Positions 5,938-21,714 of a stretch of DNA of 26,719 bases are shown here, piece by piece. The stretch comes from an uncultured virus (IMG/VR IMGVR_UViG_3300031963_000055) (lineage: Duplodnaviria > Heunggongvirae > Uroviricota > Caudoviricetes). Within the stretch, counting starts at the first letter, position 1, and every line of letters begins with the position of its first letter. The DNA lies in IMG/VR virus record IMGVR_UViG_3300031963_000055; one strand, given 5' to 3'. Both the position numbers and the translations under genes were made by a program. The notes under the pieces were generated by a model, which was given only the letters and a program-made list of their open reading frames with translations, did not search any database and had not been told where the DNA came from.

Positions 5938-6348
5938 TTAGTTTACTACAAAATTAAAAATTAATGCTGTAGTAATATTCCCACCTGTAGCATTAAGATA
6001 GCGTATTTTAAAAGACCCTGCTGTAATACTTTCAATACTAAAATGTACACCATAAGCGGTTAAGTTTGTTGTATCCATATTTGCAATAACAACGGAATCC
6101 GCTTTTACAGCCGAGTTATTTACTGTAAATACAACATTAGTTGCTGTAGATAAAGACGTTGTATTTGTAGTAATTACACCTTTTGTAGCATTTAATGTTA
6201 CTTCATTAGTGCGATTAGTTGTTTGAGTTACTGTACCAGATGTACCATTTACTTCATCAATGATTTCATCAATCTTTGAAGACAGTACTTTGACATTTGG
6301 AATTTGTGCTCCTAAGAATTGCTTAGGGGATGTTTTTGATATTGCCAT
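5938..6348 (-). CDS. putative head fibre / decoration protein
   Basis: Short N-terminal coiled segment (KIDEIIDEVN) then a T-rich beta domain (GTVTQTTNRTNEVTLNATKGVIT). Confidence 0.45.
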   Translation of the reverse strand: MAISKTSPKQFLGAQIPNVKVLSSKIDEIIDEVNGTSGTVTQTTNRTNEVTLNATKGVITTNTTSLSTATNVVFTVNNSAVKADSVVIANMDTTNLTAYGVHFSIESITAGSFKIRYLNATGGNITTALIFNFVVN

Positions 6349-7918: not shown

Positions 7919-9370
7919 CTAGCTAATGCTAGAAGCATCTAAAATTAATTGAGCCGCATCTGAAGGATCTCTTAACATGATACCACATTCAGTCATTGCT
8001 TCAAATGTGTAACCATCTACTGAACTTGCAGATGAACCATTCTTCTTAGGTCCATAAGGTCCATACATACCTTCGATGTAAGTTGTTACCATCTCACGAT
8101 CTTTAGAGTATACTTTTTGAATATTTGGTTCTCCTTTGTTATAAGACTTAAAGTTTAAGAAAGTTGCTTTGTAAGACTCAGCTGGTTTACCAGTTTGAGG
8201 GTGTAACAAACGATTTCTTACAACATCATTATAAGGCTTGTATTCTTTTAAAGTAATCTTATCACCATTTAAACCTGTGTAAGTCATGAACTGGCCATGT
8301 AACTCTAAGTTTTGTCCTTCACCTGCAATGAATTTACTATCAACTAAGTTGAAAGCAGATGCACTACGTTTCATAGCTTGATCAAATAAGTTCATGAACT
8401 CACGACCACATAATGCTACATACTCACGAGGACCATCTTCAGTACCATTGTATGCTAAATCTCCCATGAAATCACGGATAGTTTTCTCATTCAAAGTAGT
8501 GTATAAACGTTTGTTACCTGGAGCAATTTGAGATTCTAATCCAGCACCAGAATAAATAGTATTTCCTGAAGCACCTTTTAAATCTGTAGTACCGTTAGAT
8601 TTAACGTTAGATTCACCAAACATTAAACTAATTTCAATCTCATCCATGAACTGTTTCCAGAATTCCCACTCAGCATATTTTACCCAAGTGTTAGTTTTTT
8701 CATTAGTTTCAGGATTTAACATTGAGATAACCATAACACGGCTGTGAGCAGCACCAGTTACAGAATATTTTTTACGCAATGTAGACATAAAGTTTTCTAA
8801 CATCATTGGTGTAGCATAGTGAGTTTCACCAGATGTACGAGAATGATCATGCTCTACTAAGTTGTATTCTTTAGATACCTCTTTACCAACTACTAATAAC
8901 GCTCCTGGGATTGCTTTAGTAATATCAGCAGTAACTAATTGACACACTAAGATGTAATCAGCTCCGTCATAAATTGGTTCAGAAATTACACGAGCTTTAT
9001 AATCTGGACTGTCAAATAATAAAACGTCACCTTCTGAGAACCATTTTTCACCTACACCAATTTTAAAAGTTGTAGCATTGATACCTACTGAAGCAGCAGC
9101 ATCAAATACTGAACGTGTAATTGAAATAGCTTTACGAGAATCTCCAATGATATTCCAACGATATTGGATACCATCAATCTCTTTAGATTTACCCATACCA
9201 CCTGTTAAGAATGATAGAGCATTTTTATAACCGTTTTGTTTGTTATAAATACGAGTGATAACTTGACTAGCAATAGCTGGCTCAGTTAAAAAGAAACTAG
9301 ACAAATGTGAATCTTGAGTAAGACCCGCATGCCAGTTCATGTTTGTTATTTGTAATGGACTAATTTGCAT
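7919..9370 (-). CDS. major capsid protein (crAss-like, HK97 fold)
   Basis: 483 aa; motifs STLRKKYSVTG, GAGLESQI, HPQTGKPAESY, VDGY, GIMLRDP; order portal-scaffold-MCP. Confidence 0.9.
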   Translation of the reverse strand: MQISPLQITNMNWHAGLTQDSHLSSFFLTEPAIASQVITRIYNKQNGYKNALSFLTGGMGKSKEIDGIQYRWNIIGDSRKAISITRSVFDAAASVGINATTFKIGVGEKWFSEGDVLLFDSPDYKARVISEPIYDGADYILVCQLVTADITKAIPGALLVVGKEVSKEYNLVEHDHSRTSGETHYATPMMLENFMSTLRKKYSVTGAAHSRVMVISMLNPETNEKTNTWVKYAEWEFWKQFMDEIEISLMFGESNVKSNGTTDLKGASGNTIYSGAGLESQIAPGNKRLYTTLNEKTIRDFMGDLAYNGTEDGPREYVALCGREFMNLFDQAMKRSASAFNLVDSKFIAGEGQNLELHGQFMTYTGLNGDKITLKEYKPYNDVVRNRLLHPQTGKPAESYKATFLNFKSYNKGEPNIQKVYSKDREMVTTYIEGMYGPYGPKKNGSSASSVDGYTFEAMTECGIMLRDPSDAAQLILDASSIS

Positions 9371-10629: not shown

Positions 10630-11154
10630 TTATCCTTTTAATTCTGTATCAAATAATCTCATTGCTATCTTATCTTCACCAAAAGCTTCTAATTTATCTA
10701 TATAAGTTTGAACTTTTCCTAGTTCTTCTTGTTGTTCAGTTAAGAATTTCATAGCTAATTGATATAATAAATGATTACCATATTTCATAGCATGTGAAGC
10801 TAATTCATTACATTGTTGAGTAACCATTATTTCATGAGCAAATGATTGTCTAATAATATCAGGTAATCCAGCAAATACTTGAGGAGGTTCTTTTAAAGCC
10901 GGTAACTTTGGAGTTACTCCCATATCTAAAAGAAAATCTTTAGCCCATTGAGCATGTTTCATCTCATCTTCAGAATCCTTTAACCAGGCTGAAGCTGCTC
11001 CAGTATATCCATGATCATTTAACCATAAAGACATTATTTGATATAGCCGACTAGAATATTCTTCTTGCTCAATTCTATAATTTAATATATCAATGCATTC
11101 TTTAGATGCAAAAGGGTTTTTAACCCCACCAAGTTTTACTTTAGGTACTTCCAT
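10630..11154 (-). CDS. ftnA: ferritin (FtnA-like)
   Basis: EEYSSRLYQIMSLW...GAA...EDEMKH...HEIMVT...EQQEE matches the bacterial non-haem ferritin pattern (ELYSS.LY..MS.W, EEM.H, HE..IT, EQ.EE). Confidence 0.85.
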   Translation of the reverse strand: MEVPKVKLGGVKNPFASKECIDILNYRIEQEEYSSRLYQIMSLWLNDHGYTGAASAWLKDSEDEMKHAQWAKDFLLDMGVTPKLPALKEPPQVFAGLPDIIRQSFAHEIMVTQQCNELASHAMKYGNHLLYQLAMKFLTEQQEELGKVQTYIDKLEAFGEDKIAMRLFDTELKG

Positions 11155-13733
11155 TATTTTTTAGGTTTATTAGATTTAGCTTTAGCTGCGGCCAACTTCA
11201 TACGTTCTATCTCCATCTTTTTATTCATCATATCTTTATCTAAAGCAGCTTTCTTATTAGCTAATTCAATTTGATTCTTATTTTGAATTTTAATTTGTTC
11301 AAGTTTCTTATTTTCTAGATCTTGTTTCATTCTAATCTCTTTATCTTTTTGAGCTAACTGAGCATCATGTTTAGATTTATCATGTCCAATCTTAGATTGT
11401 TCTAAGAATGCTTTAGATGATAATTCTTGTTGTTTTAATGCATTAGCCGCAATCTCTGAAGGATCAGGGATACCATTATCATTTTGATCTAAATCTTGTT
11501 GTCTAGCAAATACACCAATCTCAGCAATTTGAATTTTTGTAGAATTATTAGCTTCAGCAATATATCTTTCTTGATCAAGTTTTAAATGATCTAATTCAAC
11601 TTGTTCAGCATGCATTTGTTGTTGAATAGCTTCAACTTTCATTTCATGCTCTTGTTGAGCTTTAGAACTATCAGCTTGACGTTTATAGAACTCCTCTTCT
11701 TTACGTTGTAACAATCTTACAATATCTCTAGGAGAATCATTCATTAATGTTTCAACTATTGAAGATAAATCTATTTTTTCAGACTGTAATGCTACTTGAA
11801 CTAATTGGTCTAACTTAGCTTTTAATTCAAGATCTTTAGTATTGTTAGTTACAAATACATTAAACTCTGAATTCTCAAATTCATTCTCTTCTAGGTTAAG
11901 CATCTCAATACCCATATCATCTAAGACATACTGAGCAACTAATCCTTTCTTATAACATATCTTAGCAACTTCAATCATTGCTGTATAGGCTCTACGTTTA
12001 ACTTCAGCATGAGCTTCGTACAAATATTCAGTAATTAATGATGATTGATTAACAGATCTTTCTACATTACCAACTAGTTCAGAGTTATTAATAGCACCTA
12101 AACGTTGAGGTGTAACACCAGATACAAAGGCTACTTGTTGTTTAATGTAATCCAACATATTGATATATTGTTGAATAGATTGACTAAGACTTAAATCAAT
12201 TGCTTGAAACTGATTAAACTTGTTGGCCAATTGTCCTGTAGCAGCACCTTTCTTACCTTCCTCAAATGAGTTAATGAATGCAATATTCATCTCTTTAAGA
12301 TAGTACATCCACTTATCAATATCGATACCTTGACTTTGAGGTATCTGAGCTAAGTCCATGATGAACTTCTTACCTTGATCTGAAGCAAATGCTATCTCTA
12401 ATCTATAAGATATAATATCATATAAATATTGATAAGGTTTTAATCTGTCAATTAAACTAACTGATTGAGAGTTAGTAGCTTCATATATAAATCCTGTATA
12501 ACCTAATCTGCAGTAGTATGGATTATCCAATCTACGTCTTTGGTTAGGTTTAGGTTTAATGTCTGTAAATATATCTAATCCAATTTTAACACCTTCCCAA
12601 GCTTCATTGATCCAATACCATTCTACTTTAGCATCAGGGAAAGCTTCTTTAAATATTCTAGTATTAAAGAATTCATCTACAATCTCTGTATTAACAGTTC
12701 CTTCTTCATCAGTCCAAGTTAACTCACCAATCTTCTTCATTGATTTCCATTCAACTCTAGTAACTCTAATAGAATAGTTATTACTATTATTTCCATTATA
12801 AGCATTAGTTGGAGTAACTCCTGCAAAAGCATTTTGTCCATTAACTACATCAAACTGAGGTTCAAATCCACCTGCTGTATTAAAAGAACCAAAGGTCCCT
12901 CTAGTATAATTTTCTAATTTCTCTATATCTGCTTTAGATAGAATATCACCATATTCATCTAAAATAGTATTGATGGCCAACATACGTTCTTCAACTACTG
13001 CTATAGCATCATCAATAAAAGTAGTATCTCCATCTAGTATCACAGTTAAGTTAACTGGATTAACTCTACGCATAGCTACTTCATCATTCTCAATACCTAC
13101 CCAATAAATCTCTTCTCCAGCAATTAAAGCATCTTTCCATCCTTGAGAAAATAATAATCTAGTATTACATTTCTTCTTTAAAGACTTAAGAATCTTGTTA
13201 GCTTTAGATTCAATTATATCCGACGGTGTATATTTTTCATGCTTGATAATTTCTTCCGGTGGAGGTGGTGGATTATTAGGATCTGCATTAGGATCAATTT
13301 GATAAGCCAAACCTTGTTGTAAAGCCTGGAAAATCTTTTCCTTAATTGCTGAAGTCTTTCTGTTAATATCATCTGGAGATTCAGATACCACAATATGATT
13401 ATCTGGACGTTTAGTTTCCTCACCAATAAGTAACTTAATTGGTTCAGAGATGATGTCATAATGTTGAAATCTAGCGGGAAATGTATTTGAAGTATTGATA
13501 CCCAATGGATCACATATAGTTTCAATATCCTTATGGTTGACTTTACCATTATATAAATCGTAGTTAATTAACTTTCTAAGTCTATCAGAACGCAGATTAC
13601 TACCATTAGTATATCTGTAATTTGAATAATAATTAATGCAAGACTTACCCCACTCTTTGTCTTTGCTAGACATAGGTAACTTTTGTTGTGGTAAATTCTG
13701 ACCACCTAAATTGGCGTATATATCTTGACTCAT
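11154..13733 (-). CDS. portal protein
   Basis: 859 aa directly after the terminase; crAss-type motifs NYDLYNG, LLIGEE, WINEAWEG, LKPYQYLY, SGVTPQRLG; long C-terminal coiled coil with DQNDNGIPD. Confidence 0.9.
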   Translation of the reverse strand: MSQDIYANLGGQNLPQQKLPMSSKDKEWGKSCINYYSNYRYTNGSNLRSDRLRKLINYDLYNGKVNHKDIETICDPLGINTSNTFPARFQHYDIISEPIKLLIGEETKRPDNHIVVSESPDDINRKTSAIKEKIFQALQQGLAYQIDPNADPNNPPPPPEEIIKHEKYTPSDIIESKANKILKSLKKKCNTRLLFSQGWKDALIAGEEIYWVGIENDEVAMRRVNPVNLTVILDGDTTFIDDAIAVVEERMLAINTILDEYGDILSKADIEKLENYTRGTFGSFNTAGGFEPQFDVVNGQNAFAGVTPTNAYNGNNSNNYSIRVTRVEWKSMKKIGELTWTDEEGTVNTEIVDEFFNTRIFKEAFPDAKVEWYWINEAWEGVKIGLDIFTDIKPKPNQRRRLDNPYYCRLGYTGFIYEATNSQSVSLIDRLKPYQYLYDIISYRLEIAFASDQGKKFIMDLAQIPQSQGIDIDKWMYYLKEMNIAFINSFEEGKKGAATGQLANKFNQFQAIDLSLSQSIQQYINMLDYIKQQVAFVSGVTPQRLGAINNSELVGNVERSVNQSSLITEYLYEAHAEVKRRAYTAMIEVAKICYKKGLVAQYVLDDMGIEMLNLEENEFENSEFNVFVTNNTKDLELKAKLDQLVQVALQSEKIDLSSIVETLMNDSPRDIVRLLQRKEEEFYKRQADSSKAQQEHEMKVEAIQQQMHAEQVELDHLKLDQERYIAEANNSTKIQIAEIGVFARQQDLDQNDNGIPDPSEIAANALKQQELSSKAFLEQSKIGHDKSKHDAQLAQKDKEIRMKQDLENKKLEQIKIQNKNQIELANKKAALDKDMMNKKMEIERMKLAAAKAKSNKPKK

Positions 13734-15823
13734 TGGTTTGTACTTGTGTTAAATTGGGAATTCTTCCTATTAAATATAAGGCCTTTTTTATAAATTCTTT
13801 CTAAGTAATTACTAATAGGGTTAGCATCATTTGATAGCTCTTCTACATGTATTCTATGTAATTCATAGGTTTGTAAAATACATAGCATTAACGCAATAAC
13901 TCTATCTGTATTTATTTCTCTATCATAAGCTATTAACTCTTTTAGCAATGGTATAGATTTAATAGTCTGAAATCTAAGTTGTTTAGTTCCTTCTACCTCA
14001 CCATTAATTTCCTCATATAACCATTTCTTAAGATATAACTCACACTGATCTTTAATACCCGCCGCACCTCCAGATCCTCTATTCATATGGATACCATATC
14101 CACGTTGAACTCTAGAATCCTTAATCATATCCTTAATAATACCAGGTTGTTCACACATATATTGTAGAGAGTTCTTTTGTTCAAAGTATACCTTTAAACC
14201 TTTTAACTGGTTCTCATACAATACTTTAGAGTTATAATACATACATAGTTTTCTACATACTTCATAAAACTCTTCTGCAGTATCTGGTCTAGATGTGTAT
14301 TCAGCAACTATAATATCATGAGTTCTATCCGCTCTATAAAATCTCTTATAGACAAAGAATGAGCCTAGAGATCCAGATTCTGATTTATCTTGATCATAAG
14401 GGTCACATCCTGCAATATATAAGTAATTAGGTATCTCACCATTCTCATGTTTCTCAGGGTGTTCCCAAATCACTGCACAGCCATTTGTAGAGAATGATTC
14501 TCCTGACTTAGGATCTTTTCTTAAAGGGAAGTCTGTAATATGAACTAAGTCATCATTAGGTCTCCATTTAACATATCCATCATCAAAGAATAGTTCACCT
14601 TTCTGAGCTTGACCTCTAAGACTAGGAGTATTCTCTAAATGACCTAACCATTCTAACATCTCTGGAGAACCAAAGACATTACCTTTATTTCTTAAAAAAG
14701 CTTCTTTCCAAGTACAAGGGAATTGAGTAGTAATATTATGAATTGCTTTAGGATCTAAACCATGTTTAGCCTTAGCTCTTAAAAAGTCAATATCATCTTG
14801 AGCTGCTTCATAGTTAGAGTTACCATCTTCATCAACCATAGGTTTTTTATACCATTTAGATTCTGGATTAAGACATAAGCCTAATCTGCCTTTTGTAGCT
14901 GAACTAAAGAACCCTATCCTGCCATTAGGATTAAATGGATCCTCAAAATCTAACATGTTGTATTTTTCAGGATTAGTAAACATCTCATAGAAATACTTAC
15001 TCCCTGAATCCATGTCTCCAGAAGATCCAAATAACAGAGCTACACCTGTGTATGTACTACCGTCTTTTATAAGGGGTTCAGAGTAACCATATGCATCTAC
15101 AATGTTTCCAAAAACACCGCATTCGTCGAGGATTAACCAGTTAGCACTAAGCCCAACACCACTAGTAGGATTATCTTTGTAGCTAATGGCACGCACTTCG
15201 GAATTAAACCCCTTCCACACCTTAACCCCGCTAACAGTTGCCTGATACCTTGCCTTAATAAAGTCTTTAAGGTCAGGATTTCTTTGCTTTCTGAATTCAG
15301 TATTCATATTGATAAAATTTGAATTATCAATAACCATATTCATAGTGTTTTGACTAAAGGTGCTGTAAAAAGCACCTATAATTGCTTTACTATCTGGATA
15401 GAAATAGAATTCATGTGTACATATTGCTGCAGCTTTGTAAGACCAACCTTGACGACGACCTTTTACAGCAACTAGTGATTTTTGATTTAGTCTACAATAT
15501 TCTACCATGTGGAAGAATTCATAATCTAAATCTATAAATCTAGGAAAGATTTTAGATTTCTTTCCAGTCTTTTCATTAAGACCTAATATTGGACAGAAGT
15601 TTAAATAGAAAAAATGTTGACCAGTAATATGTTGCCCACAAGAGTTAGTAAATCCATTTAAACATTTATCTCTAACATCTTGCCAGAACTCTACATATTC
15701 TATAGTTCCTGGAATAGAGTTAGTATATAATCCTGTTCTATTATATTGTTCAGCAAGATATGAAAACTCTTTAGTATTCTTAAAGTAGTCTACACATATT
15801 ACGTATTTATTGTCATTCAGCAT
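13730..15823 (-). CDS. terL: terminase large subunit
   Basis: Walker A-like KGRRQGWS, Walker B LILDE, nuclease motifs IAGCDPY, LYEN, TDRV; ATGA overlap with the portal gene. Confidence 0.93.
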   Translation of the reverse strand: MLNDNKYVICVDYFKNTKEFSYLAEQYNRTGLYTNSIPGTIEYVEFWQDVRDKCLNGFTNSCGQHITGQHFFYLNFCPILGLNEKTGKKSKIFPRFIDLDYEFFHMVEYCRLNQKSLVAVKGRRQGWSYKAAAICTHEFYFYPDSKAIIGAFYSTFSQNTMNMVIDNSNFINMNTEFRKQRNPDLKDFIKARYQATVSGVKVWKGFNSEVRAISYKDNPTSGVGLSANWLILDECGVFGNIVDAYGYSEPLIKDGSTYTGVALLFGSSGDMDSGSKYFYEMFTNPEKYNMLDFEDPFNPNGRIGFFSSATKGRLGLCLNPESKWYKKPMVDEDGNSNYEAAQDDIDFLRAKAKHGLDPKAIHNITTQFPCTWKEAFLRNKGNVFGSPEMLEWLGHLENTPSLRGQAQKGELFFDDGYVKWRPNDDLVHITDFPLRKDPKSGESFSTNGCAVIWEHPEKHENGEIPNYLYIAGCDPYDQDKSESGSLGSFFVYKRFYRADRTHDIIVAEYTSRPDTAEEFYEVCRKLCMYYNSKVLYENQLKGLKVYFEQKNSLQYMCEQPGIIKDMIKDSRVQRGYGIHMNRGSGGAAGIKDQCELYLKKWLYEEINGEVEGTKQLRFQTIKSIPLLKELIAYDREINTDRVIALMLCILQTYELHRIHVEELSNDANPISNYLERIYKKGLIFNRKNSQFNTSTNQ

Positions 15824-15824
15824 A

Positions 15825-16133
15825 TTAAAACATTATATGTAATTCATAACCATCTACAGCAGATGCTGAACATCCATTTTTATTTTTAAAAGGACTACAT
15901 ACACCTTCAAGATATGATAATACTTTTATGTCTTCAGGTTTTAAGTTATATTGTTCTAATGTTTTTAATTCATTATCTAATATCCAACTTTGATTTCCTT
16001 TAAAATTAATTTCTATTGGTGTATTATTACAACCAATAACTAACATGTATCTTTTTATATTTTTTAAATCTAATCCTTTTTTAGATTCATTTAATAAAAA
16101 AGTTGAATAATGATTTTCTTTTGTAAATTCCAT
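15825..16133 (-). CDS. small protein with MCP-like N- and C-terminal segments
   Basis: FTKENHYSTFLLNE resembles MCP 17-30; YLEGVCSPFKNKNGCSASAVDGY resembles MCP 431-454. Confidence 0.75.
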   Translation of the reverse strand: MEFTKENHYSTFLLNESKKGLDLKNIKRYMLVIGCNNTPIEINFKGNQSWILDNELKTLEQYNLKPEDIKVLSYLEGVCSPFKNKNGCSASAVDGYELHIMF

Positions 16134-16135
16134 AA

Positions 16136-16657
16136 TTATTTATCTTCAAACATTCCAAGCTGAGCATCTCCTCTAACTTTATTACCAGATGATTGTTCTT
16201 TATTACAATTATCTAAAGCTGATTGAACAGCTTCTTGCATCTTAGGCATATCTATAATTGCCTTTTGAATTTTAGTAATACTATCCTCATTGTATTCTGC
16301 AGTCTTAAAGAACTCCTCCATTTTACCAATAGATTCTTGAACAGCTTTAAACAATCTCATTGCAGGAGTAGTATGTATTTTATCGTACATATTAATACAA
16401 GCTAAAAGTTCTTCCGTCATTTTAAACTTAGGTTCTTTTAAAATATGATCTACAATTAATTTATGCTTATCTACATTACTATGTTGGAAGAATGGTGATT
16501 TAAATGAAGCATAATACCAAGTGTATTTAATTATGTTAAATGCATGAGTTTTATCTTTAGATTTATCTTTCTCCCACACAGATTTGAATGGTTCTATAAC
16601 CAAACATTCTGGAGCTACAATAATCTTACTATCTTTTAAATCTATTATTTTAATCAT
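16136..16657 (-). CDS. helical protein upstream of terL; candidate small terminase subunit
   Basis: 173 aa, helical, near terL; function inferred from position only. Confidence 0.45.
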   Translation of the reverse strand: MIKIIDLKDSKIIVAPECLVIEPFKSVWEKDKSKDKTHAFNIIKYTWYYASFKSPFFQHSNVDKHKLIVDHILKEPKFKMTEELLACINMYDKIHTTPAMRLFKAVQESIGKMEEFFKTAEYNEDSITKIQKAIIDMPKMQEAVQSALDNCNKEQSSGNKVRGDAQLGMFEDK

Positions 16658-17061
16658 TAATTTTTTAATCTTTTAAATTTAGTATAAGCTTTTTCAAAAA
16701 ATTCAATTGTTTCACTTAATAAATACCCTTGTAGATAAGCATAAGTTTCATTGGCATCTTTTTTCTTAAATATTATATTTTTATGTTCTAAAATATCTTG
16801 AGTTAAATGTAATAATTCATGACCTATTGTATCAAAGTAATATTTTTTATTTACATCATATTTAACAATTAATACATGTAATCTAGTCTCATATTTAGAA
16901 GTAAATTTATTAAAAACACACCCTCTACATTCAATAAATTCTTCATCAATGTCATATTGTGTTTTTAAATCTTTTTTAACATTGTTAAAATTATCTATGA
17001 CATAGACACTAACAAGACAACCATATATAGGTATTATTAATTCTTTATGCATATGTATCAA
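16657..17061 (-). CDS. zincin-like metallopeptidase
   Basis: HEXXH motif (GHELLH) and downstream NETYAY third-ligand motif. Confidence 0.7.
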   Translation of the reverse strand: MIHMHKELIIPIYGCLVSVYVIDNFNNVKKDLKTQYDIDEEFIECRGCVFNKFTSKYETRLHVLIVKYDVNKKYYFDTIGHELLHLTQDILEHKNIIFKKKDANETYAYLQGYLLSETIEFFEKAYTKFKRLKN

Positions 17062-17335
17062 ACTCTACAATAATAGGATTATTTGTTTTTATAGGACATC
17101 CATCAATACATGTTGTCTCATCTTTAAGATTTAAAGATTCTAATAATACTTTTATATCACGATATTTAAAATAGATATTTCTTATCATATTTTCTCTAAA
17201 ATTAAATTTTGCAGATTCCATTGAATAATGCCCCCAATAAAAGCTTAATGTGTTTGTTTTACGATCAACATAACCTGTTAAAAAGGTTTTATCTTTATAT
17301 ATTGCATAATATATTACTAATATCCAGTATCTCAT
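17045..17335 (-). CDS. hypothetical protein, weak similarity to MCP N-terminal region
   Basis: 96 aa, overlaps its neighbours; YKDKTFLTG vs MCP YKNALSFLTG. Confidence 0.5.
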   Translation of the reverse strand: MRYWILVIYYAIYKDKTFLTGYVDRKTNTLSFYWGHYSMESAKFNFRENMIRNIYFKYRDIKVLLESLNLKDETTCIDGCPIKTNNPIIVEFDTYA

Positions 17336-17601
17336 TGTCCTAATCCTTTAATAGTAATTGGTGTAAAGTAATTATCTCTTAACTTCTTATAAGGCATATT
17401 AATCTTATAGTATTCAGTATCATATTTACAAGTAGTAAACTTAGGTACAACCTTACCAGAAGGATTCATATGTTCTTCTATCTGCATACCCTCAGTAATG
17501 AATAGCTTCTTTTGAAATATTCTTTCTGGGACATATCTTGCAATAGATCTACCTCTTTCCTTTATAGGTAATTGAGATATGACTTCTAGTTCTATTATCA
17601 T
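17332..17601 (-). CDS. hypothetical protein
   Basis: 89 aa, ATGA overlap with the downstream gene. Confidence 0.6.
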   Translation of the reverse strand: MIIELEVISQLPIKERGRSIARYVPERIFQKKLFITEGMQIEEHMNPSGKVVPKFTTCKYDTEYYKINMPYKKLRDNYFTPITIKGLGQ

Positions 17602-17602
17602 A

Positions 17603-17830
17603 TTATTTTAAGTCTTTACTGAATAACCATGTTGAATAAGAATAAAATGAATCATTATCTTTTAATTTGATTATAATAAACATTTTAAGTTTCATTTTAC
17701 GTAATTTGGGTTTAACTAAAGATATTACTTTATTTGCTAATTCTGTATCTATTTCTTTAAATAATTTAAAAGAATGGTTTTGAGGTACATTTAAAGTATC
17801 TGTAGTATAAACTTTTAATTTATTTACCAT
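17603..17830 (-). CDS. hypothetical protein, weak similarity to portal 170-200
   Basis: Start probably ATG at 17830 (short overlap with the upstream stop); 17845 is also possible. Confidence 0.5.
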   Translation of the reverse strand: MVNKLKVYTTDTLNVPQNHSFKLFKEIDTELANKVISLVKPKLRKMKLKMFIIIKLKDNDSFYSYSTWLFSKDLK

Positions 17831-18024
17831 TTGTTCATTGGACATTTAGAATATTCTGACCTTGTTTTAGCAATTAAAGGACACCCACATTGTGAGCAAG
17901 TATTGTTAATATTGTAAAAACAATTTGAACAAACTACTGCTCTGTCCATAGCTATCTTTTCTACTTTAGGATTTTCCCAAATTACATTGGACCATCCTGA
18001 AATAATTTCCATTAATTTACTCAT
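17824..18024 (-). CDS. small Cys-rich (zinc-binding) protein
   Basis: R..C..C.......C..CGC....K......CP..KW pattern. Confidence 0.7.
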   Translation of the reverse strand: MSKLMEIISGWSNVIWENPKVEKIAMDRAVVCSNCFYNINNTCSQCGCPLIAKTRSEYSKCPMNKW

Positions 18025-18250
18025 CTGTCTTAAGTTTTAATCGTTTAATATAATCTTGATTGTAAGCAGTAGGTCTAAACTTACCTAAGTAAATTAACTG
18101 AACTACTTTACCCTCTCTATTACTCATAGTATTTCTAATTACTCTGAACTGTGAGTCACATATTCTTTCAAGTTCCATTTTAGATAATGTAAAGTCACCC
18201 TTAATTTCATCCAATATTTCTTCATAGATATTACTTTTTGTTGAGTTCAT
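18017..18250 (-). CDS. HU/IHF-like DNA-binding protein
   Basis: Two helices then KVVQLIYLGKF, resembling the HU/IHF V.L.GFG.F strand; such genes are typical of crAss-like phages. Confidence 0.6.
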   Translation of the reverse strand: MNSTKSNIYEEILDEIKGDFTLSKMELERICDSQFRVIRNTMSNREGKVVQLIYLGKFRPTAYNQDYIKRLKLKTDE

Positions 18251-18408
18251 ATTTTACCTTCTCTATCACTAGTTATATTAAAATGTTTGTCAAATTCTTC
18301 AATTTTCATATCCATAATAATACCATTTAAACCCATATTTATAAGTTTATTTCTATATGAAAATACTTGAGATTGTAATAATAAATAATCTTTTAATAAC
18401 TCTTCCAT
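18247..18408 (-). CDS. 53-aa ORF not in the supplied track
   Basis: MEELLKDYLLLQSQVFSYRNKLINMGLNGIIMDMKIEEFDKHFNITSDREGKI; TAATG overlap upstream and ATGA overlap downstream fill the gap exactly. Confidence 0.7.
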   Translation of the reverse strand: MEELLKDYLLLQSQVFSYRNKLINMGLNGIIMDMKIEEFDKHFNITSDREGKI

Positions 18409-18728
18409 TATACAAAACTTAAATTAACTGAATCATGTTTTAAAATATGTAGAATATTAGGATTAACTTTAAGGGTTAGTCTATCTACTTGTTGTAATAC
18501 TTTCTTAGTAACTAGTTTTTTAATATAGTTATTAAAATTAAACTTATCCATATCTAAGAACATACGAACATCTGTTCTAGTATTCTTATCAATAATAGTT
18601 ATCTGCTTATCAGCAATAACAACTAAGATCTCAATCTCTTTATCTGTTAAGTTACCCATAATAGGATTCAACATCTGAATAAGATATTTAGTTTTTTGAG
18701 CTATGGGAAGTTTAAGTTTGAATTCCAT
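18408..18728 (-). CDS. winged-helix DNA-binding protein
   Basis: LTDKEIEIL...DVRMFLDMDKFNFNNYIKKLVTKKVL, MarR-like HTH pattern. Confidence 0.6.
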   Translation of the reverse strand: MEFKLKLPIAQKTKYLIQMLNPIMGNLTDKEIEILVVIADKQITIIDKNTRTDVRMFLDMDKFNFNNYIKKLVTKKVLQQVDRLTLKVNPNILHILKHDSVNLSFV

Positions 18729-18811
18729 TATTTATCATCTTCAAAATAAGCAGAAATTAATACACTTAATCCTATTACTATAAGTACTAAATTTAAATCG
18801 TTTAATTCCAT
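18728..18811 (-). CDS. 27-aa single-TM peptide not in the supplied track
   Basis: MELNDLNLVLIVIGLSVLISAYFEDDK; TAATG coupling to the next gene; ATG at the predicted transcription start. Confidence 0.6.
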   Translation of the reverse strand: MELNDLNLVLIVIGLSVLISAYFEDDK

Positions 18812-18815
18812 ACAT

Positions 18816-18847
18816 CAAATATAACTGATTTAATTATAATAACCAAA
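18816..18847 (-). promoter_or_regulatory. Bacteroidota primary-sigma promoter (-33/-7)
   Basis: TTTG(18847-18844)-N20-TATATTTG(18823-18816), an exact match to TTTG-N19-21-TAnnTTTG. Confidence 0.75.
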
Positions 18848-18868
18848 TAAATTATATAACTAAGTTAA

Positions 18869-19192
18869 TTATCTAGTTATTCCATATTGTATCAATTTAT
18901 GGGAATCTGGATGCATTGTTAAATATCTAACTACTTCCTCATAAAATACAGATTGAAATACTTCTAAATGGTCTACTGTTAGATCATAATTCTTTCTTAA
19001 AACAACTTTATTAAATCCTATATCAATTTTAGTTGGTTTATACCATAAAGTAAAACATACCCCTTTACCTTCATTTGTTGTCCATTCATCTATTTCAAAT
19101 CTACCATATCCAGGTTTAGATCTTACTTTGCTATCAGCATCTTTGTTTACTATATCTAATAGTTGTTGTATAAACTCTTTACTTATTTCCAT
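18869..19192 (-). CDS. small protein resembling part of the terminase nuclease domain
   Basis: Start revised to ATG at 19192 (leader AAAATAAAAATT); aligns by eye to TerL about 465-532. Confidence 0.6.
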   Translation of the reverse strand: MEISKEFIQQLLDIVNKDADSKVRSKPGYGRFEIDEWTTNEGKGVCFTLWYKPTKIDIGFNKVVLRKNYDLTVDHLEVFQSVFYEEVVRYLTMHPDSHKLIQYGITR

Positions 19193-19516
19193 AATTTTTA
19201 TTTTGAATTGAACACAATATTCCCCTTCCAGTTTGTACACCAGATGTTAGGATTAATTATAAACTTATATCTATCTGTCTTTAACCGTTCCAGTTACCTG
19301 GCCACTGCTTACTTTAACCCTGTTAATTCAGGAGGATACTTCATACCTCTTGTAGCAGTTATAGAATTTCATTTATAACCTTTTTTTGTACCTATCGGAG
19401 AAACCTCAACCCTTATGTTTAGATGTTATTTCAATCTCAGAGTTTACTATCCAACTTCTAAGCAAGTGTTAACTTTTTGGGTATTCCTTGCTGAATTACT
19501 TCTTCAGTAATAGTAC
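19193..19516 (-). ncRNA. candidate structured ncRNA or long structured 5' leader
   Basis: About 320 nt with no convincing ORF, starting at a predicted promoter; several stems and a GTAA-tetraloop hairpin; family not recognised. Confidence 0.5.
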
Positions 19517-19520
19517 AGTA

Positions 19521-19552
19521 TAAATATAAGCTTTTTCTAGGACACTATCAAA
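19521..19552 (-). promoter_or_regulatory. Bacteroidota-type promoter
   Basis: TTTG(19552-19549)-N20-TATATTTA(19528-19521). Confidence 0.65.
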
Positions 19553-19733
19553 TTTCAGGTGTTAAATCTTTAGAAATATCTTTAATTTCTAAATCGGATT
19601 CTGGAGTAATTATGGGTGCTTGCCCTTCTAATGAAGAATCCCACCAAACTATCCCTTTTTCTTTTACCCAATATAGAAATTCTGTAATTTCCATTTGATT
19701 AGGTTTTGATTTTAAATCATATACTAGTTTCAT
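19548..19733 (-). CDS. small protein resembling portal 456-493
   Basis: KLVYDLKSKP...EITEFLYWVKEKGIVWWDSSLEG vs portal KFIMDLAQIP...DIDKWMYYLKEMNIAFINSFEEG. Confidence 0.7.
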   Translation of the reverse strand: MKLVYDLKSKPNQMEITEFLYWVKEKGIVWWDSSLEGQAPIITPESDLEIKDISKDLTPEI

Positions 19734-19734
19734 A

Positions 19735-19947
19735 TTATTCTTCAGTTATAGGACTAGTCCCAGTTAATAAATAAAACTTATTGATTTTCTCAGCCATGAT
19801 TAACTTCTCATTGATATGATCCATATCCTCATAATCTAGTTTATCGTTATAGTGTTTCTTAGTTACACCCATTTTAAGGTAAATTGATCCATCAGGTAAT
19901 ATACCTATGATTTGATGATCGTTGAAATTTTTAGATTTTGTTCTCAT
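19735..19947 (-). CDS. small protein with a segment resembling portal 61-77
   Basis: YNDKLDYEDMDHINEKL vs portal YNGKVNHKDIETICDPL. Confidence 0.55.
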   Translation of the reverse strand: MRTKSKNFNDHQIIGILPDGSIYLKMGVTKKHYNDKLDYEDMDHINEKLIMAEKINKFYLLTGTSPITEE

Positions 19948-20417
19948 TATTTAATATTTAATTGTTGCATTAGTTTAATTAATTCTGATTTGTTTTTAAT
20001 TTTAAATCTCATAACCCATTCTCCAGGTACATAAGATGAATATGCTTGTATTTTAATAACCCAATTATCATCTTGTTGAATTAACCAATAATGAATACCA
20101 TTGTTAAATCCAAACTCTTCTGTTTTTTGAAAAGTCATTAATTGTCTTCCTGTAAATGGTGATTTTTTAGAATCTCTTAATTCCCAACCTAAACTTTCTA
20201 TATCAGATTGGTCTAGGTATTTAACTCTAACTGTTCTAATTCCTCCTAATAATTCTTCTTCAAACCAACTATCTGATCTTTCATAATCTGGTCCATCAGA
20301 TTTATAATCTTGTATTCTCATTTTAGATTCTTCCCACCTATCTCCATTCATATATTCATATCCAAATCCTACATGAAACTCTTCTATTGTAGGTGTATAG
20401 TATAAGTTATTTTCCAT
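19947..20417 (-). CDS. hypothetical phage protein
   Basis: 156 aa; YYTPTIEEFHVGF.YE and RVKYLD..DIESLG motifs; function unknown. Confidence 0.65.
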   Translation of the reverse strand: MENNLYYTPTIEEFHVGFGYEYMNGDRWEESKMRIQDYKSDGPDYERSDSWFEEELLGGIRTVRVKYLDQSDIESLGWELRDSKKSPFTGRQLMTFQKTEEFGFNNGIHYWLIQQDDNWVIKIQAYSSYVPGEWVMRFKIKNKSELIKLMQQLNIK

Positions 20418-20586
20418 TTGTATAATCTTTAGGTAATGTTGATTTATTAGATTGTTTAATTATTGTTTGGTGTAAAGCTTCTTCTAGTCTATAGGTTATA
20501 ATATCATACAGATGTTTATGTTTAATCCTAATATCTACAGGTTCATCTACCCAAAACTGTTGTTGTTTATATTCATTGTTACTCAT
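20407..20586 (-). CDS. 59-aa ORF not in the supplied track, containing a portal-like peptide
   Basis: MSNNEYKQQQFWVDEPVDIRIKHKHLYDIITYRLEEALHQTIIKQSNKSTLPKDYTNGK; ATGA overlap with the upstream ORF. Confidence 0.75.
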   Translation of the reverse strand: MSNNEYKQQQFWVDEPVDIRIKHKHLYDIITYRLEEALHQTIIKQSNKSTLPKDYTNGK

Positions 20587-20765
20587 TGTTGCTCATTGTT
20601 AAATAATTGTTCTACTTTAATTCTTATTTCTACTTTACCACTAGCACCATTCTTAAATTCTTTCCACTCTTCAATAGGTAAAAATTTAGATTTACTTCCT
20701 AAGTAAATAGTTACATTTCCTAATGGGTGATTATATACAAACATTATTGGGTCTTGTTCTACCAT
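20583..20765 (-). CDS. small protein, weak similarity to portal 214-240
   Basis: 60 aa, overlapping both neighbours. Confidence 0.55.
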   Translation of the reverse strand: MVEQDPIMFVYNHPLGNVTIYLGSKSKFLPIEEWKEFKNGASGKVEIRIKVEQLFNNEQQ

Positions 20766-20974
20766 GAGAATTGTTCTTTAGGTCCATTAATAAAGTATTC
20801 TTCTAATATCTTGTTTCTAGCTATAATGTAATCAGCACCAGTTCCTTCTACTCTAGTAGCAGGTTTAATAATATTAGTATATTCTACAGTAGTAACTGTA
20901 TGTCTTATGACTTCTCCTAACATAATAGTAGTATGTTCTAAGTCTGGAGTACGGTGTAATATCTTAATTTCCAT
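20759..20974 (-). CDS. small protein with segments resembling portal 324-380
   Basis: 71 aa, ATG 4 nt after a promoter -7 element; VTTVEY, EGT and EEYFIN match the portal in order. Confidence 0.6.
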   Translation of the reverse strand: MEIKILHRTPDLEHTTIMLGEVIRHTVTTVEYTNIIKPATRVEGTGADYIIARNKILEEYFINGPKEQFSW

Positions 20975-20978
20975 GATC

Positions 20979-21010
20979 TAAAGGTAACTAATAATTAACT
21001 AATTACCAAA
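20979..21010 (-). promoter_or_regulatory. Bacteroidota-type promoter
   Basis: TTTG(21010-21007)-N20-TACCTTTA(20986-20979)-N4-ATG. Confidence 0.65.
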
Positions 21011-21159: not shown

Positions 21160-21714
21160 TTAAGATTTATCAGTGTTAGATAGTTTAAGGTATTCTACGG
21201 CTTTTAATAATAAAATTGAATTATCCTTAAACATACCCAATCCTGAATTACAATTAGAGCATAATAAACCCCTTACTAATCCTGTATCATGACAGTGATC
21301 TATTGATAATTTTCTATGGTAAGTATTACAAATCAAGCAGTTACCTTGTTGAGTACTATACAATTTATCATAATCTTCTATCGTCATATCATAGTTAGAT
21401 TTTAATTTTTGTTTTCTCTTTCTTAGAGACTCTTTAATAGGGTTAGCTTTTCTTTTTATTGCTTTGTATTTATTTCTGCATACTTTACAACTAGATTGAG
21501 TACTTCCTGTATTTTTATTGATAATTGAAAAACAAGATATATCTTTAGATTCTGTACATGTGGTGCATATTTTTAAACCCTCTACAATAGGTTTATGTGG
21601 TTTATGACCATATCTACATTCTTTACAAAACCCTAAATACCCGTCTTTGTTTACTGAACACTGATTAAAATCAGTAAGTTCTTTTTCTACTTTACATTTT
21701 TTACATATTTTCAT
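21160..21714 (-). CDS. endonuclease VII-family (His-Me finger) endonuclease, probably a free-standing homing endonuclease
   Basis: CLIC...IDHCHDTGLVRGLLCSNCNSGLGMFKD, preceded by two CxxC...CxxC repeats. Confidence 0.85.
   Translation of the reverse strand: MKICKKCKVEKELTDFNQCSVNKDGYLGFCKECRYGHKPHKPIVEGLKICTTCTESKDISCFSIINKNTGSTQSSCKVCRNKYKAIKRKANPIKESLRKRKQKLKSNYDMTIEDYDKLYSTQQGNCLICNTYHRKLSIDHCHDTGLVRGLLCSNCNSGLGMFKDNSILLLKAVEYLKLSNTDKS

Follow-up and report, generated by a model that had tools for sequence, protein, structure and literature searches.

The window analysed here is a 26,719-nucleotide (nt) fragment of a freshwater crAss-like phage (IMG/VR record IMGVR_UViG_3300031963_000055). 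Positions 15825-20974, upstream of the gene for the large terminase (TerL), are filled by 17 intact small open reading frames (ORFs), which we read as an ordinary strain-variable operon of accessory genes, the last of which encodes a protein of about 100 amino acids (aa) with a C-terminal hairpin derived from the major capsid protein (MCP). We assign this reading a probability of about 0.6. The initial annotation had proposed instead that up to ten of the small ORFs are diverged fragments of the phage's own portal protein, TerL and MCP, and that these fragments together act as a decoy system. Judged by alignment, 16 of the 17 small genes have no demonstrable relation to any of the three proteins, and only for the 102-aa ORF adjacent to terL is the resemblance to a structural protein robust. 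All genes across positions 1-21714 lie on the minus strand, in the order small ORFs, TerL, portal and MCP. The features on which the argument turns are the following:

7919..9370, minus strand: MCP of the HK97 fold, 483 aa, a relative of crAss001 gp32 (phrog_11589, E 1e-105; PDB 7qof_A, E 3.8e-39)
7994..8089, minus strand: MCP residues 428-459, the counterpart of the segment in the 102-aa protein (BLASTP and profile alignments)
11154..13733, minus strand: portal protein, 859 aa (phrog_6547, E 1e-147; PDB 7qog_A, E 6e-122)
13730..15823, minus strand: TerL, 697 aa (phrog_6681, E 9e-116)
15825..16133, minus strand: 102-aa protein of a conserved family of about 100 aa (BLASTP against MCP, E 1e-7; profile score 25.3 bits)
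15831..15923, minus strand: MCP-like hairpin, residues 71-101 of the 102-aa protein, with predicted strands 71-76 and 95-101 and a loop between them
16136..16657, minus strand: 173-aa gene for a helical protein, conserved in all relatives (43 loci by tblastn)
19548..19733, minus strand: 61-aa ORF with a marginal likeness to portal residues 456-493 (BLASTP E 0.001), treated here as unproven
20407..20586, minus strand: 59-aa ORF with a likeness to portal residues 434-449 (BLASTP E 1e-4, 10 of 16 residues identical)
16657..20974, minus strand: the other 13 small ORFs, accessory genes mostly syntenic in relatives, for which no link to TerL, portal or MCP could be detected

Smith-Waterman comparison of the 17 small ORFs with ten proteins (TerL, portal and MCP plus seven control proteins of the window; 200 shuffles each) yielded z-scores of 4 or higher in only three of 170 cases, namely, 15825-16133 against MCP (z 8.6) and 19548-19733 and 20407-20586 against portal (z 4.8 and 4.1, respectively). 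The best z among the 119 control comparisons was 3.6, and TerL never exceeded 1.3 with any of the 17 ORFs. Profile hidden Markov models (HMMs) were built from 46 TerL, 33 portal and 24 MCP relatives, and each ORF was scored against them along with 200 of its own shuffles. The 102-aa ORF reached 25.3 bits with the MCP model (shuffle maximum 1.8), the 59-aa ORF 7.1 bits with the portal model (shuffle maximum 5.7) and the 61-aa ORF 3.4 bits with the same model (shuffle maximum 3.2), and the remaining 14 ORFs scored no better than their own shuffles. The best small-ORF score with the TerL model, 0.1 bits, was exceeded by 8 to 29 of 200 shuffles, and among 605 small ORFs of relatives none matched TerL at E≤0.1. 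In Pfam and PHROGs, none of the window's small ORFs matched a family of portals, terminases or capsid proteins. The segments from which the fragments had been thought to derive (portal 61-77, 214-240, 324-380 and 604-626, TerL 465-532 and MCP 38-72) do come up as top local alignments, but with scores at chance. What survives of the proposed resemblances is thus the region around MCP 431-454 in the 102-aa ORF, the genuine match spanning MCP 428-459; the resemblance of residues 3-16 of the same protein to MCP 17-30 is weak (BLASTP E 0.057), as is that of the family N-terminus to MCP 18-31 (profile E 0.033).

A clade-wide control, in which 911 small ORFs from 63 loci were compared by BLASTP with the proteins of at least 300 aa from their own loci, gave 17 matches at E≤0.01 with the real and 11 with the reversed targets, the best reversed match having E 2.4e-4. 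Only four matches stand above this noise: the 102-aa ORF against MCP, a 187-aa protein (P0031) of the related locus L073 against both its MCP and its portal, and a 58-aa ORF of L046 against MCP. Five control profiles, together with reversed sequences, put the noise floor of the HMM scans at about E 0.01, in agreement with the BLASTP control. A set of 43-aa ORFs of relatives resembling MCP 17-41 (E 0.002) was discarded as lying within the noise and partly selected after the fact.

The two portal likenesses do not withstand these controls. The 61-aa ORF shares 13 of 46 residues with portal 456-501 (BLASTP E 0.001), but the hhalign match of its family to portal weakened from E 2.9e-4 with four sequences to 2.2e-3 with 20, close to the best control, an unrelated protein (E 5.9e-3), and the BLASTP match to the cognate portal (E 0.004) is inside the reversed-target noise, as is that of the 59-aa ORF (3.6e-4). 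With the family profile of the latter, the hhalign match falls off to E 0.11 because the LYDIITYRLE motif which produces the match is missing from 17 other family members, and the likeness is best read, from these alignments, as chance. The family of 20407-20586 (homologues include L057:5963-6175, L012:2176-2421 and L006:4788-5015) is characterized by a conserved N-terminus of about 28 aa (MSNNEYEQQQFW...) and a hypervariable tail. In four relatives, this tail (the MSNNEY-family tail) contains YYKSALSMLT...Y.W and matched MCP 47-75 with a profile E-value of 2e-4, a candidate that was dropped as lying within the noise, partly selected after the fact and insecure after multiple testing.

By contrast with the other ORFs, the 102-aa protein resembles a defined element of the MCP in pairwise, profile-profile and shuffle-based comparisons alike. 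Its residues 71-101 share 16 of 32 positions with MCP 428-459 (BLASTP E 1e-7). In hhalign, its family profile matches MCP with a probability of 97% (E 1.8e-11), and the match holds with 28 family members, for which the profile-profile alignment of 71-101 with 428-459 has a probability of 96.7% (E 3.4e-10). The C-terminus matches the MCP of every relative, and best those of distant clades (60% identity over 30 aa, E 8e-8). From HK97 topology, we take MCP 428-459 to be probably the C-terminal hairpin of the P-domain. No MCP family model of PHROGs or Pfam matches the 102-aa ORF or any of the 28 members, and only residues 71-101 align. Comparison with crAss001 gp32 (PDB 7qof; phrog_11589) is instructive in the same respect: homology to the capsid protein's C-terminal hairpin covers the last 32 or so residues of the 102-aa protein, with the same positions invariant, but the small protein has 102 rather than about 480 aa and lacks the E-loop, I-domain, spine helix and A-domain. 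We conclude from the alignments and the predicted fold that it is a compact alpha/beta protein in which the two C-terminal strands and the loop between them appear to derive from the MCP hairpin. Two broader assignments were considered. One, by which the 102-aa protein in its entirety would be a P-domain standing alone (MCP 182-240 plus 427-459), is suggestive only, given that the N-terminal 68 residues of the family score 4.5 bits against MCP 182-239, within about the top 1% of 1,410 proteins, and unrelated small proteins score up to 6.9. The other, a relationship to EcoRV-like PD-(D/E)XK nucleases, was dropped, the family profile matching EcoRV 64-118 with E 0.053 only and the PD and DIK residues, which we take to be the catalytic ones, not being kept in the family alignment.

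A profile search of 1.84 billion representatives recovered 27 clusters of the family at E≤1e-3, mostly of 100-119 aa. A 61%-identical homologue of 103 aa is also known. In the family alignment (28 sequences, with the 98%-identical P0001 left out), H8 and G77 are invariant and W50, E55, Y74, P81, D94 and Y96 nearly so; five of these eight most conserved positions (Y74, G77, P81, D94 and Y96) fall in the hairpin. Y74, E76, G77, P81, D94, G95 and Y96 pair with MCP residues Y431, E433, G434, P438, D452, G453 and Y454, which are invariant. When 1,410 proteins from the related loci and the window were scanned with the family HMM, 95 rows came up at E≤10, of which 89 are MCP-sized and six small; five of the six are copies of the 102-aa protein itself, and the sixth is probably a fragment of the L023 MCP. 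Neither the 102-aa protein nor any of the 28 members belongs to a Pfam or PHROG family, and tblastn of the 102-aa protein found no match among GenBank phages.

The AlphaFold2 (AF2) model obtained with the 28 sequences is of good predicted quality (pLDDT 86, pTM 0.74; with three sequences, pLDDT was 50 and the model unusable). The order of elements is a helix (9-15), three strands (28-34, 39-44 and 47-52), a second helix (53-61) and the two hairpin strands (71-76 and 95-101). The model has no close counterpart among the structures searched: the best Foldseek match in PDB has E 0.56, the VIA-align searches peaked at Z 3.2 (wide search) and Z 3.0 (second look), and the best match in BFVD has E 0.098. 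Among HK97-fold structures, an encapsulin ranks highest with Z 2.9, a value that unrelated folds reach as well, and no capsid matches above Z 3.2.

The most distant relative is L073, a crAss-like locus in which TerL, portal and MCP are 36%, 37% and 38% identical to those of the window. Its 187-aa family member, P0031, sits just upstream of the homologue of the 173-aa gene and terL. The hairpin of P0031 shares 17 of 36 residues with its own MCP 428-463 (E 9e-8), including a variant W-x-I-x-G-S-C-S-P motif present in both, and is closer to this MCP (17 identical, score 82) than to any other (at most 14 and 49, respectively). In addition, its N-terminal extension matches its own portal 442-473 (15 of 32 identical, BLASTP E 1e-7), and matches the portal profile of the window's clade with a probability of 83% (E 8.7e-6), a level reached by none of 500 shuffles. 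The crAss001 portal gp20 (PDB 7qog) offers a structural reference for this piece, as residues 455-493 of the window portal, to which the statistically insecure likeness of the 61-aa ORF pertains, align to gp20 residues about 458-494. By the residue ranges given in PMC10172136, the outer stem region lies on one side of this segment and the inner stem helix 519-541 on the other, a position that, by analogy with canonical portal topology, we infer to be the clip. From these residue ranges and our own inference, the L073 portal piece, falling between the stem helices, is probably in the clip as well. The hairpins of the window, L068 and L069 are closest to MCPs of the L046/L060 type, and those of L068 and L069 are the farthest from the L073 MCP. 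Such tracking of the MCP by the hairpin is, as far as the alignments indicate, not what a single old duplication without later constraint predicts.

The operon as a whole behaves as a set of accessory genes. In 62 related loci (TerL 58-100% identical), syntenic counterparts of most small ORFs precede terL, and their conserved motifs are unrelated to structural proteins. The description of the ORFs as intact and coupled stands, with 15 of the 17 junctions overlapping or separated by at most 2 nt and the remaining gaps being 307 and 140 nt; the 17 ORFs range in size from 53 to 173 aa. In a close strain represented by three runs, the stretch 15700-17605 is kept with 25 differences, and in the same strain, which is about 98-99% identical elsewhere, the stretches 17606-18016, 18867-19520, 19554-19727 (where the 61-aa ORF lies) and 20001-20183 are replaced or absent. 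The result is a cassette-like mosaic among co-occurring freshwater strains. Among the 40 variants listed (of 90), 25 are synonymous and 15 non-synonymous, which argues that the small genes are maintained.

Distribution of the 102-aa gene is patchy. Across the TerL-anchored loci, the slot between the 173-aa gene and terL can be seen in 42; four of these contain the full-length ORF, each of them representing the window's own strain. In most of the 42 loci, the slot is empty, so that the 173-aa gene adjoins terL (in most loci with a gap of 6-15 nt), and where it is filled, HNH endonucleases or different small ORFs are found in it. In L068 and L069 (TerL 64-65% identical), a family member occupies the same position between the 173-aa homologue and terL. 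In the window, the ATG of terL lies 1 nt beyond the stop codon of the 102-aa gene.

What the 102-aa protein does can be addressed only in graded terms. A dispensable accessory role in head assembly or packaging, exerted by mimicry of contact elements, is the function that we tentatively favour, even though its odds are well below even; the gene being packed against terL is the reason for this preference. Because the two genes are 1 nt apart, the 102-aa protein would be produced together with the terminase-portal-capsid module. Its capsid-like hairpin might then engage the partner that normally contacts this MCP element during head assembly or packaging, the portal clip-like segment added in the L073 member would serve the same purpose, and the protein would be a dispensable modulator rather than a core part. 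A broader version, in which small proteins beside terL display the hairpin of their own capsid protein and some also the clip segment of their own portal, each matched to the cognate protein, with these mimics restraining terminase or capsid or blunting host sensors and the 58-aa ORF of L046 being a further capture, is somewhat more doubtful. Several observations weigh against a mimicry role. The hairpin of the window's clade is nearer to the MCPs of L046 and L060 than to its own, so that tracking holds only at the level of deep lineages, and cognate matching rests on the single distant genome L073. The hairpin strands belong to the protein's own predicted sheet, and therefore their conservation may reflect folding constraints instead. 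The predicted fold, having no match in PDB or BFVD, offers no functional lead. Finally, nucleotide identity of the patches is low (56-61%), so that they are not recent copies; the 56-58% of the L073 patches excludes repeated recent copying.

Nearly as likely as the head-assembly or packaging role is an alternative that treats the shared hairpin only as a leftover of common descent or of an old recombination, in a protein whose function is unrelated to capsids. The low nucleotide identity is compatible with a relic, as are the lack of significant MCP likeness in the rest of the protein (4.5 bits for the N-terminal part) and the failure of the whole model to align to any capsid structure, but a single old duplication predicts neither an L073 member far closer to its own MCP nor a second patch from the cognate portal in the same protein, and nothing else in the family is as well conserved as the hairpin. 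Considerably less probable is that the family, including its L073 form, is an anti-defence protein presenting copies of epitopes that occupy or blunt a capsid or portal sensor. The patchy distribution in a strain-variable region fits this idea, conservation within the family is highest at the MCP-like residues, and the L073 form combines pieces of two classes of sensed proteins in their cognate versions. However, the Lit protease, which senses the Gol peptide of T4 gp23, is activated rather than blocked by a short capsid peptide, and a 32-residue hairpin inside another fold would be a poor mimic of a core fold. Moreover, according to a recent preprint (bioRxiv 10.64898/2026.01.04.697583), Avs7 buries about 3,700 square angstroms of MCP and Avs families recognise conserved core folds; because whole folds are read over very large interfaces, a decoy of 32 residues is unlikely to work, at least for the sensor class covered there. 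A dominant-negative action of the protein, by which it would block capsid assembly in related phages during co-infection, is in our view very unlikely. A capsid-derived element with an accessory distribution, more similar in the window's clade to the MCPs of other clades than to its own, would suit such a role, but the L073 hairpin best matches its own MCP, so that an inhibitor of this kind would poison its own assembly.

The decoy array originally proposed is the least credible of these explanations. In its favour are the intactness and tight coupling of the ORFs, local alignments that are indeed the best available for each segment, and the sensing of MCP, portal and TerL by bacterial Avs families (bioRxiv 10.64898/2026.01.04.697583). 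Given that 14 of the 17 ORFs and all TerL likenesses are at chance level, and that the portal pair fades in deeper profiles and stays inside the reversed-target noise, the array is unsupported, and the syntenic homologues of most ORFs, with motifs of their own, point in the same direction. As a counter-defence, such an array would have been of a new kind, yet the claim fails. The analysis leaves a conserved family of small proteins, built in part from the phage's own capsid protein, in abundant uncultured freshwater phages. If the pieces act as mimics, phages would have in them a new means of regulating their own assembly or of disturbing the sensing of their core proteins; if they are relics only, they still record the recruitment of structural-gene fragments into new small genes.

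Capsid-derived accessory proteins have precedents. The T4 vertex protein gp24 and Ccm, the capsid-size redirector of the satellite SaPIbov5, are full-length MCP paralogues and, like the 102-aa gene, represent an extra capsid-derived gene kept beside the main MCP gene; however, both have the complete HK97 fold and enter the shell, whereas the 102-aa protein carries a hairpin-sized piece in a different small fold. The likeness to Lit and Avs, from which the decoy idea originated, is that capsid and portal are proteins read by host immunity; the Avs families, as the preprint reports, read whole folds over large interfaces. A non-exhaustive search of partly accessible literature found neither a phage decoy built from a fragment of its own capsid nor such a small-protein family.

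The 173-aa protein next to the 102-aa gene is universal in relatives and might therefore, speculatively, take part in packaging, for instance as a small terminase. Its profile also has a weak match to anti-CRISPR AcrIIC4 chains (E 0.003, residues 89-153). The slot on its terL side (15824-16135) is an insertion hot spot, with HNH-type endonuclease-like ORFs of 182-204 aa in L012, L024, L028 and L068. Among the other family members, the 182-aa P0008 carries a C-terminal fusion resembling the 82-aa ORF that fills the slot before terL in L057 (L057:9759-10007), which implies that in some phages these two small genes lie side by side or form a single gene. P0014, P0015 and P0008 have N- or C-terminal extensions, none of which resembles a structural protein. 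No relatives of P0025, P0021 and P0014 were found among viral contigs, three archaeal matches from a genome-contig scan with P0025 were spurious, and a metagenome scan for family members recovered only contigs already known.

Three of the 13 remaining small ORFs in the window have recognizable family matches:

16657-17061, minus strand: 134-aa ORF, phrog_1365, with a HELLH (HExxH-type) motif and a weak Peptidase_M76 match, which may be a small metallopeptidase-like protein
17824-18024, minus strand: ORF with a phrog_13558/DUF6171 match
18017-18250, minus strand: weakly HU-like ORF

The host-type promoters reported over the small ORFs are not borne out, since sigma-70-like sites (49 found versus 51.2 expected) and the Bacteroidota-type motif (2 versus 1.62, one of them at 18816-18847) both occur at chance frequency in the region; notable direct repeats are likewise lacking within the small-ORF block. 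Similarity of GenBank phage DNA to positions 13500-21000 is confined to short stretches of terL, but many freshwater metagenomes contain near-identical sequence, and these come from at least ten studies other than the window's possible sources.

Immediately upstream of the small-ORF block, the window encodes a 184-aa endonuclease VII (21160-21714; Pfam E 3e-23), the cysteine-rich N-terminal region of which matches a Lar-like restriction-alleviation PHROG. In L073, the terL gene (L073:3840-5897) contains one in-frame TAG at codon 600, with homology continuing beyond it, and the other large genes checked in this locus end in TAA; the TAG could reflect stop-codon reassignment, read-through or an error. 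L046 carries a tandem array of four mini-ORFs (L046:5598-6276), three of them exactly 160 nt apart and each starting with MNIKNKRK or a close variant. The third of these (5961-6137) is the 58-aa ORF that stood above the reversed-target noise, with a 44-aa stretch resembling MCP 270-313 (E 2.7e-6).

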